Of a stretch of DNA of 2,519 bases, positions 259 to 2,425 are shown one piece after another (the first letter of the stretch is position 1; each line of letters starts with the position of its first letter). The translations under genes and the position numbers were made by a program. Origin of the DNA: Escherichia coli (GTDB lineage: Bacteria; Pseudomonadota; Gammaproteobacteria; Enterobacterales; Enterobacteriaceae); NCBI RefSeq assembly GCF_003334355.1, contig NZ_QOWP01000074.1. The stretch is one strand, 5' to 3'. The notes under the pieces were generated by a model. It did not search any database and was not told where the DNA came from. It saw only the letters and a program-made list of their open reading frames with translations.

Positions 259-1227
259 ATGGCGAACTACGCGATAATGCGCTGCAAAAAGCTGACGGGA
301 ATGGGAAGCGTGGCCAGCGCGTTGCAGCACTGCTACCGAGAGCGTGAGACGCCGAACGCTAACGCTGAACGGACACCAGAAAACTACTGCTCTGTGTCCA
401 AATCAACGGATCAGGCAATGGGGCGTGTGCGGGAGCTGCTGCCGGAAAAACGCCGTAAAGATGCGGTACTGGCCGTTGAATACGTTATGACAGCAAGCCC
501 TGAGTGGTGGAAAGAGGCCACACCACGGCAGCAGGCGGAGTTTTTCGCCCGCTCTGAGCAATGGCTGGAGAAGAAATACGGGAAGGATCGTGTTGTGGCG
601 GCGGTGGTTCACCGGGACGAGGCCACCCCGCACCTGTCTGCGTTCGTGGTGCCATTGACGCAGGATGGACGGCTGTCCGCGAAAGAGTTTATTGGCGGGC
701 GGTCAAAGATGCGTGAAGATCAGAGCACCTACGCTGAATCAGTAAAAAAACTGGGTCTTGAGCGCGGCATCGAGGGAAGCCGCGCCACGCATCAGACAGT
801 TCAGCACTACTACGAATCGATAAACCGTGGCACCCGTAGCCAGGTATCGATCTCGCCGGAGGCGCTGGAGCCGCGTGTATTGCGGAAGGGCATTTTCACC
901 AAAGACGTGGAAGATCAGGCAGCCATAGCCAAACGTCTAAGCCACGCAGTGAACGATGGCTTTGCAGGAACCATCGCTATGGCCTCTCAGAGCGCCCAGA
1001 ACGCAAAAAGAGCGCGTGAGCTACAGAAGACTATGGATGCGCAGCAGAAACGCCTACAGAGCGTCACAGAGCCTTTTAAGGGGCTTTCCAGAGAGCAGAT
1101 GACCGAAATCCTGATGATGGCTCAGCGGTTTAAGCAGCAAAACCAGGAAAAGGAAAAACAGCAGCGTATTGAACGTGAAAAACAGCGACAGACGCGATCG
1201 CGTGGCATGGGTGGTATGGAGCGTTAG
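259..1227 (+). CDS. mob: Plasmid mobilisation relaxase, Mob/Pre (MOBV) family, 322 aa from ATG 259. The ORF track's upstream in-frame ATG at 238 would add 7 residues (MPESGGN) and is less likely.
   Basis: N-terminus MANYAIMRCKK...SALQHCYRERE has the same layout as pMV158 MobM (MSYMVARMQK...FKHNER), including the HxxR motif with the conserved His. It also carries RKDAVLAVEYVMT and VVHRDEATPHLSAFVVP (HxDExxPH metal-binding motif), then GLERG and HQTV, all matching MobM from memory. A G-rich Shine-Dalgarno (AGGGGGG, 249-255) lies 3 nt before ATG 259. The long uninterrupted ORF is GC-rich and ends with a Q/E/K/R-rich C-terminal tail. Confidence 0.9.
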   Translation: MANYAIMRCKKLTGMGSVASALQHCYRERETPNANAERTPENYCSVSKSTDQAMGRVRELLPEKRRKDAVLAVEYVMTASPEWWKEATPRQQAEFFARSEQWLEKKYGKDRVVAAVVHRDEATPHLSAFVVPLTQDGRLSAKEFIGGRSKMREDQSTYAESVKKLGLERGIEGSRATHQTVQHYYESINRGTRSQVSISPEALEPRVLRKGIFTKDVEDQAAIAKRLSHAVNDGFAGTIAMASQSAQNAKRARELQKTMDAQQKRLQSVTEPFKGLSREQMTEILMMAQRFKQQNQEKEKQQRIEREKQRQTRSRGMGGMER

Positions 1228-1255
1228 TTTTGATGCGATGCAGGATAGGGCTAAC

Positions 1256-1280
1256 GCCGCAAAGTGACGTCATTTGCGGC
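1256..1280. repeat. Near-perfect 25-bp palindrome GCCGCAAA-G-TGACGTCA-TTTGCGGC between the convergent mob and 76-aa ORF ends.
   Basis: The outer 8-bp arms are exact reverse complements and the central TGACGTCA is itself palindromic. No U-tract follows on either strand, so it is not a canonical intrinsic terminator. It could be a protein-binding site, a structure-dependent transcript end, or a single-strand initiation or resolution signal. Confidence 0.5.
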
Positions 1281-1296
1281 ATTCACCACGAAAAAA

Positions 1297-1527
1297 TTAA
1301 TCATTCAGATGGTAATCATGTTTTTTTAAAATAGAAAAAGCTGCGTTTTTCTGCTTTGGTGACAAACCCTTAGTTGAGTATTTATTACCGCTAGTTCTAC
1401 GATATATGCTGTAAACACTGCTTAAAAAAGTACGCTCCCAAACAGTCAGAACCTCATTCTTTTTTAGTGAATCATGCAGCATTAGCCTGTCTACATTTTT
1501 AAAAAGTTTATCTTCAGCATTCATCAT
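1297..1527 (-). CDS. Hypothetical small basic protein (76 aa) of unknown function, probably co-transcribed with rep.
   Basis: The ATG-ATG start (1527-1522) overlaps the last 14 nt of rep in another frame. A GAAGG Shine-Dalgarno motif lies about 6 nt upstream on the - strand. Composition matches rep, and the stop is TAA at 1297-1299. No family recognised; the protein is Lys/Ser-rich. Confidence 0.4.
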   Translation of the reverse strand: MMNAEDKLFKNVDRLMLHDSLKKNEVLTVWERTFLSSVYSIYRRTSGNKYSTKGLSPKQKNAAFSILKKHDYHLND

Positions 1528-2017
1528 CCATTACCTTCGTCTGCACCGTTCTTCCATTGGTGTCATAACTGATCTTTAACTCAATTTTCTTTCTTCTTTC
1601 GTAAATTGATGGCCAGTCTCCCCGTGCAAAAAGAAAGGGGTTAGCTTCAAGTTCCCCACGCCCTGCCCGGAAGAATATTTGTTTATCTACAAGAGCCGCA
1701 ATTATGTTTTTAAAGGTCTGATATTCAATATGAACCCTGGGCTGTATGGTTTTTTCAAATCTAGTTTTTGATACAGACACAAACCCATCCCATCCAATCA
1801 GCATTGCCAATTGTAAAAGCACATCATTTTGAGATTTTGATAAACCATGAATCATCGCAATGTCTGCAATGTATAGCTTGACGTAGGGAGGTTCGGCTGG
1901 GATGGAAAAGGTCTCGATCTTAGAGTCTTGTTTTACCTCACCGTTTTCATCCATGTATGTATGCCGTTCAAGCCTAGAAATCTTTTTCGTATTCACTCCA
2001 GCCCCACGTTTCGCCAT
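1514..2017 (-). CDS. rep: Putative plasmid replication initiator (small, 167 aa, iteron-associated). Family not securely recognised; possibly a small RepL-like or winged-helix Rep.
   Basis: The ORF sits directly downstream, on its own strand, of a 22-bp iteron array and an inverted-repeat operator that reuses the iteron core. Its central segment (PPYVKLYIADIAMIHGLSKSQNDVLLQLAMLIGWDG) looks like a helix-turn-helix or winged-helix DNA-binding region. AT-rich codon usage matches the surrounding replication module. The function is assigned from context, not homology. Confidence 0.7.
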   Translation of the reverse strand: MAKRGAGVNTKKISRLERHTYMDENGEVKQDSKIETFSIPAEPPYVKLYIADIAMIHGLSKSQNDVLLQLAMLIGWDGFVSVSKTRFEKTIQPRVHIEYQTFKNIIAALVDKQIFFRAGRGELEANPFLFARGDWPSIYERRKKIELKISYDTNGRTVQTKVMDDEC

Positions 2018-2020
2018 GAT

Positions 2021-2044
2021 TTAGTACTCGCATTTAAGTACTAA
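2021..2044. promoter_or_regulatory. Inverted repeat (8-bp arms TTAGTACT / AGTACTAA, 8-nt spacer) reusing the iteron core; candidate Rep autorepression operator.
   Basis: The arms at 2021-2028 and 2037-2044 are exact reverse complements. TTAGTACT is also the core of every iteron. The repeat sits between the rep start codon (2015-2017) and the putative -35, overlapping the putative -10. Confidence 0.6.
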
Positions 2045-2060
2045 AGAGACATACAGTCAA
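2032..2060 (-). promoter_or_regulatory. Candidate sigma70-type promoter for rep.
   Basis: On the - strand there is a -35 TTGACT (2060..2055), a 17-nt spacer and a -10 TTAAAT (2037..2032). This predicts a very short leader before ATG 2017 and only a weak GAG-type Shine-Dalgarno, so the call is tentative. Confidence 0.35.
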
Positions 2061-2074
2061 GTCCTTTGCATCAA

Positions 2075-2170
2075 GTACGATTAGTACTTGAGGTGAGTAC
2101 GATTAGTCCTTGAGGTGAGTACGATTAGTACTTGAGGTGAGTACGATTGGTACTTGAGGTGAGTACGATT
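2075..2170. repeat. Iteron array: four complete 22-bp direct repeats (2075-2096, 2097-2118, 2119-2140, 2141-2162) plus a partial fifth copy (2163-2170). Likely Rep-binding sites of the vegetative origin.
   Basis: The unit GTACGATTAGTACTTGAGGTGA is exactly tandem with 22-bp (two helical turn) periodicity. Copies 1 and 3 are identical; copy 2 has one change (A to C at 2108) and copy 4 one change (A to G at 2149). The array lies immediately upstream of the rep promoter region. Confidence 0.9.
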
Positions 2171-2203
2171 CTTCGCTCTAGCCCTTGGTACAAGCGGGTT
2201 CCC

Positions 2204-2224
2204 ATATCTATATCTATATATTAA
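2204..2224. other. Short AT-rich tract with TATATC-like repeats; candidate DNA unwinding element adjacent to the iterons.
   Basis: ATATCTATATCTATATATTA sits about 35 bp beyond the last iteron, on the side away from rep, the usual position of a DUE. It is only about 20 bp, so the call is weak. Confidence 0.3.
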
Positions 2225-2321: not shown

Positions 2322-2425
2322 ATTCCGCTTCCTCGCTTTGGCTGTTCGTTCCTCGTCGCGTTGCTCCTGCGGTACGCCTCAGCCAAAGCTGCGGCGAGCG
2401 GTTCCTGCTCTTTCAAAGACGATTT
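2322..2425. other. Segment resembling the region just downstream of the ColE1/pMB1 origin (as in pBR322/pUC backbones); candidate single-strand initiation or primosome assembly (ssi/pas-like) element. Contains a 10-bp inverted repeat (2335-2344 / 2380-2389).
   Basis: TTCCGCTTCCTCGCT (2323-2337) and GCTGCGGCGAGCGGT (2389-2403) are exact matches to strings I recall from the pUC/pBR322 backbone. The following 19 nt match at about 13 positions to ATCAGCTCACTCAAAGGCG. The intervening sequence differs and forms the stem GCTTTGGCTG / CAGCCAAAGC with a loop of about 35 nt. Function is assigned from memory. Confidence 0.45.

Follow-up and report, generated by a model that had tools for sequence, protein, structure and literature searches.

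The stretch of DNA analysed here (the window: 2,519 nucleotides of Escherichia coli contig NZ_QOWP01000074.1) carries an exact copy of its bases 1-77 at 2443-2519, and because of this 77-bp terminal duplication it represents a complete circular plasmid of 2442 bp with a 77-bp overlap. The only genes of the plasmid are mobV, rep and orf76. Upstream of rep lies a compact set of repeats, which a preliminary description had compared with the theta origins of pSC101 and pPS10. Our analysis indicates that this region (2020-2402) and rep (1514-2017) probably constitute a replication module of the RepL superfamily, in a mobilizable plasmid, with a layout like that of plasmid pHW126, namely a Rep-iteron origin with a self-repressing operator, for which an asymmetric mode of replication is the most likely. 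The central observation of the preliminary description is a rediscovery of this documented pHW126-like architecture, in an uncharacterised clade. The features are as follows.

1514-1996, minus strand: rep, 'hypothetical protein' in RefSeq; RefSeq start at GTG 1996, with an open reading frame (ORF) that extends to ATG 2017.
2020-2045, strandless: inverted-repeat operator; 9-bp arms TTTAGTACT (2020-2028) and AGTACTAAA (2037-2045), 8-nt loop.
2032-2060, minus strand: putative rep promoter, assigned by eye; -35 TTGACT (2060-2055), 17-nt spacer, -10 TTAAAT (2037-2032).
2074-2170, strandless: iteron array; Tandem Repeats Finder, period 22, 4.4 copies, 96% matches, score 180.
2171-2195, plus strand (orientation uncertain): block resembling the CR element of pHW126; plus strand CTTCGCTCTAGCCCTTGGTACAAGC, the rep-sense strand containing CAAGGGCTAGAG; abuts the iterons.
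2204-2224, strandless: AT-rich block ATATCTATATCTATATATTAA (rep-sense TTAATATATAGATATAGATAT), only about 20 bp.
2323-2402, minus strand: single-strand initiation site (ssi), a hairpin of the primosome-assembly type; minus strand 5'-ACCGCTCGCCGCAGC ... GCGAGGAAGCGGAA-3'.
259-1227, plus strand: mobV (RefSeq annotation).
1297-1527, minus strand: orf76, a 'hypothetical protein' of 76 amino acids (RefSeq annotation), which overlaps the rep stop codon by 14 nt.

Elements of the origin region

The iteron array comprises four full 22-bp copies and, at its end, a 9-bp partial fifth copy, AGTACGATT. AGTACGATTAGTACTTGAGGTG is the sequence of both copy 1 and copy 3, whereas copy 2 differs by A>C at 2108, which abolishes one GTAC core by turning it into GTCC, and copy 4 by A>G at 2149; the 'four and a fraction exact 22-bp iterons' of the preliminary description are thus correct in number (4.4 copies at 2074-2170) but not all exact. 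The length of the array is constant (97 bp) in near-identical plasmids, and in those examined (L001, L019 and L020; such numbers are our labels for related loci) the copy-2 variant is fixed and the copy-4 variant polymorphic. Each iteron has two GTAC half-sites, AGTACG and TAGTACT, with start-to-start spacings that alternate between 9 and 13 bp, and, because GTAC is palindromic, each iteron (AGTACGATTAGTACT...) is in itself an imperfect dyad. For this reason the scheme proposed earlier, in which monomers bind iterons and dimers bind the inverted repeat, does not transfer directly to this origin. The half-sites are spaced by 9 bp inside an iteron versus 14 bp in the operator. Ten of the 17 GTAC sites of the plasmid are located within 2024-2166, whereas about 9.5 would be expected for the whole plasmid. 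A further stretch, GTACGCATTTCTATGTAC (2293-2310), resembles the operator (GTACTCGCATTTAAGTAC) in that its GTACs are likewise 14 bp apart and its centre is likewise GCATTT, and by this likeness may be an extra Rep site; one of its two GTACs is missing in L003.

The operator had been recognised as an inverted repeat with 8-bp arms made of the iteron core, and so it is: TTAGTACT at 2021-2028, which is identical to the core of iterons 1 and 3, is complementary to AGTACTAA at 2037-2044, and the pairing extends to 9 bp (2020-2028/2037-2045). It is the sole perfect inverted repeat of at least 9 bp with a short loop in the plasmid; since about 10% of dinucleotide shuffles hold such a repeat somewhere, the repeat alone is weakly significant, and its weight derives from its identity to the iteron core, its position at the promoter and its being conserved or compensated in relatives. 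The arms bracket the -10 hexamer of the by-eye promoter, from which transcription is predicted to start within the proximal arm, in agreement with the overlap of inverted repeat and putative rep promoter reported before. Hexamers and spacing of this promoter are the same in L003, and corresponding sites are TTGCAA-17-TTAAAT in L008 and TTGACA-16-TTAAAT in L004. The mapped repM promoter of pIGMS31, a pHW126-like plasmid of Klebsiella pneumoniae, is TTGACT-15-TATAAC, with the start inside inverted-repeat arm IR2 (bioRxiv 10.1101/2022.12.05.519187).

From ATG 2017 the rep ORF (1514-2017, minus strand) encodes 167 amino acids, and from GTG 1996 it encodes 160. The predicted transcription start leaves ATG 2017 a leader of about 8 nt without a Shine-Dalgarno sequence. 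Because the codons from ATG 2017 to GTG 1996 differ non-synonymously in L003 (Rep 93% identical), while GGGGCT(G/A)GAGTG is kept, GTG 1996 seems the likelier start, giving a Rep of 160 amino acids. The 167-aa Rep called 'unusually small' earlier does exist as an ORF, but it is of normal RepL size, and probably starts at GTG 1996.

On the far side of the array, two blocks are conserved across Reps down to 35% identity: TAATATATAGATATAGATAT, which corresponds to the AT-rich tract, and, about 20 nt on beside the iterons, CAAGGGCTAGAG. The second belongs to the CR-like block (2171-2195), which is the best ungapped match of the plasmid to the CR (published 'conserved region') of pHW126 (17/25). Its 17-mer core, picked post hoc, agrees at 14/17, a value reached by none of 300 shuffles, and the match recurs at the same position and on the same strand, antisense to rep, in L003, L004 (18/25), L005, L008 and L010; the nhmmer matches to CR are individually weak (E 0.2-0.9, and 0.27 for the window block). 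However, the locus L012, which has GTAC sites and a Rep 59% identical to that of the window, carries a canonical CR in sense orientation, AAACTGTTGATTTTACTAGGATTT, beside its GTAC repeats. In view of L012 and of the Bacillus plasmids described below, a reading of the block as clearly inverted was downgraded to orientation uncertain; the block is nearly a palindrome (CTTGGTACAAG) and could also be aligned, with a gap, in the sense orientation.

The AT-rich tract noted earlier on this side of the iterons (2204-2224, about 20 bp) is kept as a sequence, and not just as AT content, in L003, L008, L010, L004, L005 and L007, and is a candidate melting or initiation site. No DnaA box with two or fewer mismatches was found in 2018-2442, as had been stated of recognisable boxes; the best match in the plasmid (1 mismatch) is inside rep, and matches are no commoner than chance. 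A scan with the IHF (integration host factor) consensus gave results at or near chance. Between the AT-rich block and the ssi there are two direct repeats, CTGAAAAACGGCATTTTT and CTGAAAAACTGCCTTTTT (2240-2280), each of the form A5-N5-T5 and 23 bp apart, which are kept in L003 and not in more distant relatives.

The ssi hairpin is predicted on either strand (z about -2.5), and its terminal boxes are kept in L002, L004, L007, L008 and L010. These boxes align with the ssiA (n' primosome assembly) region of pMB1/pUC. The AAGCGG-containing strand is the rep-sense strand, and the element lies upstream of the conserved block. By itself, the ssi element is common to hundreds of other plasmids, including conjugative ones of 30-100 kb.

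Homology of Rep and origins of its relatives

Judging from homology searches and a structural model, Rep is a divergent RepL (PF05732) initiator with a single winged-helix domain. Its relatives in a search of 5.8 billion proteins numbered 48; among the most distant of them (32-43% identity, E 1.9e-18 to 2e-28), three carry PF05732 (E 2e-28 to 1.6e-23). With a profile of close homologs, 2192 cluster representatives were found at E<=1e-3, mostly 150-200 amino acids long among the matches listed, and PF05732 was matched by 31 of 36 sampled representatives and by six of 23 close homologs. Searches of PLSDB with tblastn gave matches of 23-40% identity in Arsenophonus, Aeromonas, E. coli/E. fergusonii Col(MG828) plasmids, Bacillus and Priestia, nearly all of which are annotated as 'replication/maintenance protein RepL'; pHW126, pIGRK and pIGMS31 were not among the matches listed. 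An hhalign comparison of the Rep profile with RepL of pSN2 (read from Additional file 2 of PMC2831885, with errors of optical character recognition) gave a probability of 89% and an E-value of 2e-6, with the motifs GEV, FVKxY and NPxLxxRGD aligned. The pSN2 protein is about 18 kDa and has a helix-turn-helix motif (PMC5703833). The pHW126-like Reps had earlier been noted as distant relatives of pSN2 RepL (PMC2831885, PMC6854812, bioRxiv 10.1101/2022.12.05.519187), and the Rep of pIGRK (NC_011405, found by tblastn with the Rep sequence from the supplementary alignment, which contains character-recognition errors) is named RepL by PGAP, so that the two groups are linked through RepL.

A profile search of PDB sequences with Rep gave nothing significant. 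The AlphaFold model obtained with a deeper alignment (pLDDT 89, pTM 0.74) begins with a beta-hairpin (13-37) and a short helix, has a canonical winged helix (61-125) followed by one more helix, and ends in a second beta-hairpin (145-162). The predicted recognition helix reads YQTFKN in the clade with GTAC iterons versus DQTLRN in a clade with GTGACA iterons. The suggestion in the preliminary description that Rep could be checked for a RepL-like or winged-helix family was a good one, as the transitive PF05732 matches and the model indicate, despite there being no direct Pfam match. On the other hand, neither a WH1-WH2 architecture nor a Rep_3 match was found for Rep (Pfam scan and AlphaFold model), although one homolog has a weak Rep3_N WH1 match (E 3e-4). 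With one winged helix, no Rep_3 match and transitive homology to RepL, an assignment of the plasmid to the pSC101/pPS10 type is not supported.

The DNA upstream of rep was taken for comparison from relatives, among them L002-L008, L010, L012, L014, L021, L022, pIGRK, pIGMS31 and pHW126. Direct repeats with a 22-bp period, lineage-specific in sequence, exist 60-230 bp upstream of rep in most relatives whose upstream region is complete; the exceptions are L012 and L014, where the repeats are few and short or degenerate, and L006, which has none. At most loci an inverted repeat with arms made of the cognate iteron core stands directly before rep. The repeat units, nearly all of which are internal dyads, and the operators are as follows.

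Window and L003: unit AATCGTACTCACCTCAAGTACT, 4.4 copies; operator TTTAGTACT / AGTACTAAA, identical in both.
L008 and L010: unit AATCGTACTCACCTCGGGTACT, 4.3 copies; operator of L010 TGGTACTT / AAGTACCA, with both arms changed relative to the window, alongside the iteron change AGTACT -> AGTACC.
Arsenophonus L004: unit TATCACTGTGAGAGTGACAAAA, 3 copies; operator TTGTCATTAAA / TTTAATGACAA.
Aeromonas L005: unit TGTCACTGTGAGAGTGACAAAC, 3 copies; operator dyad TCACTA / TAGTGA, with the 11-mer AGTTTGTCACT common to the operator region and the iterons.
E. coli L007: unit ATACCGCTCAGCGGGAATAGAT, about 4 copies.
pIGRK: unit AGTTGTCAAATTCGTCAACTGA, 3.9 copies.
pHW126: unit GGTTGTCAAAAACGTCAACTAG, 4.0 copies.
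pIGMS31: unit AGTTATAGATTCCTATAACC, 3 copies; operator TTTATAACT / AGTTATAAA.
Bacillus L021 and L022: unit TATAATTTGTGGGATTATAAAT, 3.5-6 copies; operator TTATAATTT / AAATTATAA.

Because protein, iterons and operator co-vary by lineage, Rep is likely to bind both iterons and operator, and this is the strongest in-silico evidence for such binding. A k-mer matrix of cognate versus non-cognate operators and iterons was noisy and was used qualitatively only. One exception is L002, a Col(MG828) plasmid of E. fergusonii, in which the operator (TTTGTCAC/GTGACAAA, in the region from -150 to -5 relative to repL) matches the GTGACA iterons of L004 and L005, and not its own 22-bp repeats (TGTAACGTGTACAAGATACACC). 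L002 also has a DnaA-box-like sequence, TGTGGATAC, about 200 nt upstream of repL.

The order of elements is ssi, conserved block, 22-bp iterons, iteron-core operator and rep in L002-L005, L007, L008, L010, pIGRK, pIGMS31, pHW126 and the Bacillus plasmids of the pBMY1 type. In the pHW126-like and Bacillus plasmids a TAGA-rich stretch followed by CR occupies the same position, the CR sequence being CTCTAACC(C/A)TTGATATTACT in pHW126 and pIGRK and GAACCGTTGATATGACT in Bacillus. In L021 (a Bacillus cereus plasmid) and L022 (B. mycoides pBMY1), the approximately 300 nt upstream of repL contain a TAGAATAGAA block, CR (GAACCGTTGATATGACTGG), 22-bp dyad iterons and the operator, followed by repL; both plasmids also carry a MOBV relaxase. 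One origin plan (TAGA-rich block, CR, 22-bp dyad iterons, iteron-core operator, rep) thus extends across RepL plasmids of Gammaproteobacteria and Bacillus.

Proposed initiation and mode of replication

Starting from the observed elements, their conservation and co-variation, and the homology and fold of Rep, we propose a scheme in which binding, repression, the site of initiation and the mode of replication are modelled on pIGMS31, pIGRK and pHW126. Rep (about 160 amino acids, one winged helix) would recognise GTAC-centred half-sites and fill the 4.4 iterons, whose GTAC dyads repeat every two helical turns. Iteron occupancy would then activate the CR-like element (2171-2195) and the TAGAT-rich AT block (2204-2224), and Rep on the iteron-core operator around the -10 and the start site would repress rep, and probably orf76 too. 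The leading strand would proceed from the conserved block through the iterons and rep, and the ssi would be displaced last, because AAGCGG is on the rep-sense strand, with the ssi located 5' to the conserved block; the strand with the ssi (2323-2402, minus) would be made duplex by PriA-dependent priming.

In the pHW126-like plasmids, the minimal origin needed in cis consists of CR, four iteron-like repeats and an inverted repeat, IR1 (PMC6854812; bioRxiv 10.1101/2022.12.05.519187). The Reps of pIGMS31 and pIGRK act in trans, bind inverted and iteron-like repeats, and repress their own very strong promoter (bioRxiv 10.1101/2022.12.05.519187; PMC6854812). An ssi at this position is a non-essential part of the pHW126-like modules, and its deletion leads to multimers (PMC6854812; bioRxiv 10.1101/2022.12.05.519187). 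The autoregulated Rep-iteron layout described for the window holds as regards the iteron origin and the operator, both of which recur in relatives, and by these analogies autoregulation itself is probable.

As to the mode, we lean by analogy towards asymmetric replication, either rolling-circle or strand displacement, because of the strand and position of the ssi, which would correspond to the pHW126 arrangement, and because of the evidence from the family: the RepL/pSN2 family, which has an ssoA, is assigned to rolling-circle replication (PMC5703833), the pHW126-like plasmids have been classed likewise, and for pHW126 this mode is supported by a deletion assay with two origins (PMC2831885). 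These same points argue against theta replication, in which iteron-bound Rep would melt the AT block and, with no nick made, bring in helicase and primase of the host, while the inverted repeat would act as an autorepression operator. We consider theta replication, the chief alternative and the one nearest to the preliminary description, possible, if doubtful. Theta iteron plasmids are characterised by iterons, an iteron-core operator and a winged-helix initiator; no nuclease fold was found, and the Rep3_N WH1 match of one homolog, weak as it is, points in the same direction. Moreover, pIGMS31 gives bubble arcs and Y arcs in two-dimensional gels and shows incompatibility expressed by its iteron-like repeats, and the copy number of pIGRK is low (bioRxiv 10.1101/2022.12.05.519187; PMC6854812). 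However, Rep has a single winged helix, not WH1-WH2, and no Rep_3 match, the origin has no DnaA box and an AT block of only about 20 bp, and the strand and side of the ssi would fit a displaced leading-strand parent rather than a D-loop moving from the iterons toward the ssi.

Several other points weigh against a RepL-type module with asymmetric replication. In direct scans Rep (167 aa) has no match in Pfam, NCBIfam or PHROG, so that its membership in RepL is transitive, and hhalign comparisons with the Reps of pHW126, pIGRK, pIGMS31 and pRAO1 are weak (probability 23%, E 9e-4), though in register over the winged-helix region. Fold matches of the model were limited to the winged-helix core, with no nuclease fold among them. 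Nor is a catalytic tyrosine common to the superfamily visible: Y49 is invariant in the family of the window, whereas pHW126 and pIGMS31 have F at this position (PMC2831885, Additional file 2). In vitro, RepM of pIGMS31 nicks or relaxes supercoiled DNA, yet it also acts non-specifically on pUC18, and the gels of this plasmid revealed theta in addition to rolling-circle intermediates (bioRxiv 10.1101/2022.12.05.519187). At the origin itself, the CR-like block is best matched on the strand antisense to rep, a misfit with a simple transfer of the pHW126 model, and an alternative role of the ssi could be in making the complementary strand once conjugation has taken place. Finally, the rep promoter is a by-eye assignment and was omitted by a promoter/terminator consensus scan, because the scan demands A at position 2 of the -10.

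Neither Rep, nor its close homologs, nor the sampled representatives have an HUH or Rep_trans match in Pfam, and no His is conserved in the family alignments. The question of how initiation is achieved, raised in the preliminary description, is a real one, although already recognised in the literature. That RepL-type initiators start replication with a winged helix and two beta-hairpins only, with neither HUH/Rep_trans nicking nor DnaA-assisted melting, is in our view unlikely; initiation of this kind could possibly depend on a nuclease or priming system of the host, recruited to the conserved TAGAT/CR block. The plasmid provides an E. coli-native member of RepL for testing how a winged-helix protein without a nuclease initiates replication, and, if winged-helix-only initiation is true, a convenient and abundant E. 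coli system for the rolling-circle versus theta dispute in the RepL/pHW126 superfamily. If, furthermore, the flip of CR relative to rep is real while the ssi strand is kept, then either the block is orientation-independent or the direction of the leading strand is uncoupled from rep.

A role of the 167-aa protein solely as a transcriptional regulator, with regulatory or partition-like repeats and replication by something else on the plasmid, is very improbable. The winged-helix core does match transcription-factor folds just as closely as those of replication proteins, and Rep has no direct family match. However, mobV, rep and orf76 are the sole genes, leaving no other candidate initiator and no RNA origin, and on many plasmids of 2-3.5 kb nothing but the homologs, named RepL, qualifies as a replication gene; in addition, the RepL-linked RepR of pIGRK and RepM of pIGMS31 are essential in trans for replication (PMC6854812; bioRxiv 10.1101/2022.12.05.519187). 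An RNA-primed ColE1-type replicon with accessory repeats and an accessory small protein, which would accord with the listing of the relative pKP13a as ColE1-type in a review (PMC6764390, Table 1) and with the stretch resembling the ColE1 ssiA region, is effectively refuted, since neither strand has a match (E up to 1) to any Rfam family, RNAI included, the PLSDB records carry no Col replicon type, the likeness is confined to an ssi of about 80 bp found in hundreds of unrelated plasmids, and a conserved RepL-type gene with cognate repeats is present.

Distribution of the plasmid and comparison with known replicons

Thirty-three full-length PLSDB records match the window plasmid (megablast); among those listed, the identity is 85-99.9% and the hosts are E. 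coli, Klebsiella, Salmonella, Shigella and Enterobacter. One close relative, pKP13a (CP003996), is 97.5% identical. For the records of this group PLSDB/MOB-suite gives a MOBV relaxase type without a replicon type. The plasmid and its relatives are present in many clinical and environmental Enterobacterales, and yet rep is called 'hypothetical', no replicon type is assigned, and a relative has been tabulated as ColE1-type; the RepL-superfamily assignment with a defined origin fills this gap in replicon typing and annotation. Composition and skew profiles of the plasmid were uninformative.

Downstream of rep, orf76 is probably co-transcribed with it; scans of family libraries gave no family match for orf76, and L010 has a homolog (54% identical) directly after rep. 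Upstream of mobV there is an oriT-like inverted repeat, CACTATCA/TGATAGTG (174-192), immediately preceded by GTGAGTAC (167-174), an 8-mer that is also present in every iteron. The whole plasmid is integrated in a 48-kb IncX3 NDM-5 plasmid of Proteus, pPM1-NDM5 (L019, 2501-4993). The breakpoints correspond to a stretch of about 51 bp at window 1234-1284, far from the origin, which holds an inverted repeat, GCCGCAAA/TTTGCGGC (1256-1280). The IncX3 backbone has a similar stretch, and the sequences suggest integration by recombination at a shared site. A second record, L020 (NZ_CP139363.1, 4362 bp, 1.8 units), was considered as a natural deletion dimer and rejected, as its junction (unit 2198 joined to 281) coincides exactly with the record ends; this 'partial dimer' is probably an assembly artefact. 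With the L020 junction at the record ends and that of L019 far from the origin, no natural deletion or cointegrate junction marking a Rep nick site was found.

The likeness of the plasmid to ColE1/pMB1 is in ssiA, whose role in ColE1 has been described (PMC3167613): both elements are hairpins with the terminal boxes ACCGCTCGCCGCAG and GAGGAAGCGGAA, and several relatives align over the whole element. However, the window element is tied to a Rep-dependent origin and not to one dependent on RNA II, and the central stem is replaced by a longer one.

With the Rep_3 theta replicons (pSC101, pPS10, R6K and F) the window shares 22-bp tandem repeats beside an AT-rich stretch, a winged-helix initiator, and an iteron-core inverted repeat over the rep promoter, which implies autoregulation. 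The authors of the pHW126-like studies likewise remarked that inverted and iteron-like repeats share sequence 'as in theta plasmids' (PMC2831885, PMC6854812, bioRxiv 10.1101/2022.12.05.519187). The window differs from the Rep_3 replicons in that its Rep has one winged helix instead of WH1-WH2, a DnaA box is lacking and the AT tract is very short, while the iterons are internal dyads, an ssi is present, and the family is assigned to rolling-circle replication.

The Firmicute RepL plasmids (the pSN2 family and the pBMY1 type of Bacillus) have in common with the window an initiator of about 18 kDa with one helix-turn-helix or winged helix and the GEV, FVKxY and NPxLxxRGD motifs. The pBMY1-type plasmids also share the TAGA-rich block, CR, 22-bp dyad iterons, the iteron-core inverted repeat directly before repL, and MOBV, and pSN2-family plasmids often carry a short extra ORF (PMC5703833), as does the window with orf76. 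In contrast, they belong to another host phylum, their repeat core is TATAATTTGTGGG instead of GTAC, pSN2 has an ssoA (PMC5703833) where the window has a PriA-type ssi, and the window Rep falls below the Pfam threshold.

The window and the pHW126-like plasmids (pHW126 of Rahnella; pIGRK and pIGMS31 of K. pneumoniae) share the order of ssi, conserved block, four repeats of 22-bp period, promoter with operator, and rep. In addition, they have a strong TTGACT-type promoter that starts transcription in an arm of an inverted repeat, and a Rep of the winged-helix kind with a link to RepL; their hosts are enterobacterial and their sizes 2.3-2.9 kb. The IR1 and IR2 arms of pIGMS31 are built from the core of its own iteron-like repeats, like the operator of the window, and pIGMS31 and pHW126 have a MOBV mobilisation module. 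Their four iteron-like repeats are of 20 bp with 2-bp spacers, as compared with the 4.4 copies of 22 bp in the window. However, their Reps are 201-251 amino acids long with a long N-terminal extension and a C-terminal coiled coil, both of which are absent from the window Rep (160-167 amino acids). The G+C content is about 41% in the window module and 31.5% in the whole of pHW126 (PMC2831885). Their CR is CTCTAACCCTTGATATTACT (about 20 bp, CTCTAACCxTTGATATTACT), whereas the block beside the iterons of the window reads CAAGGGCTAGAG and fits this CR best when reversed; the ssi of the window is of the ColE1 ssiA type and not of theirs; and a conserved small ORF follows rep in the window. In short, this plasmid has a documented architecture with some distinctive details: its ssi is of the ssiA type, its CR block is altered or possibly flipped, and a small ORF downstream of rep is conserved.

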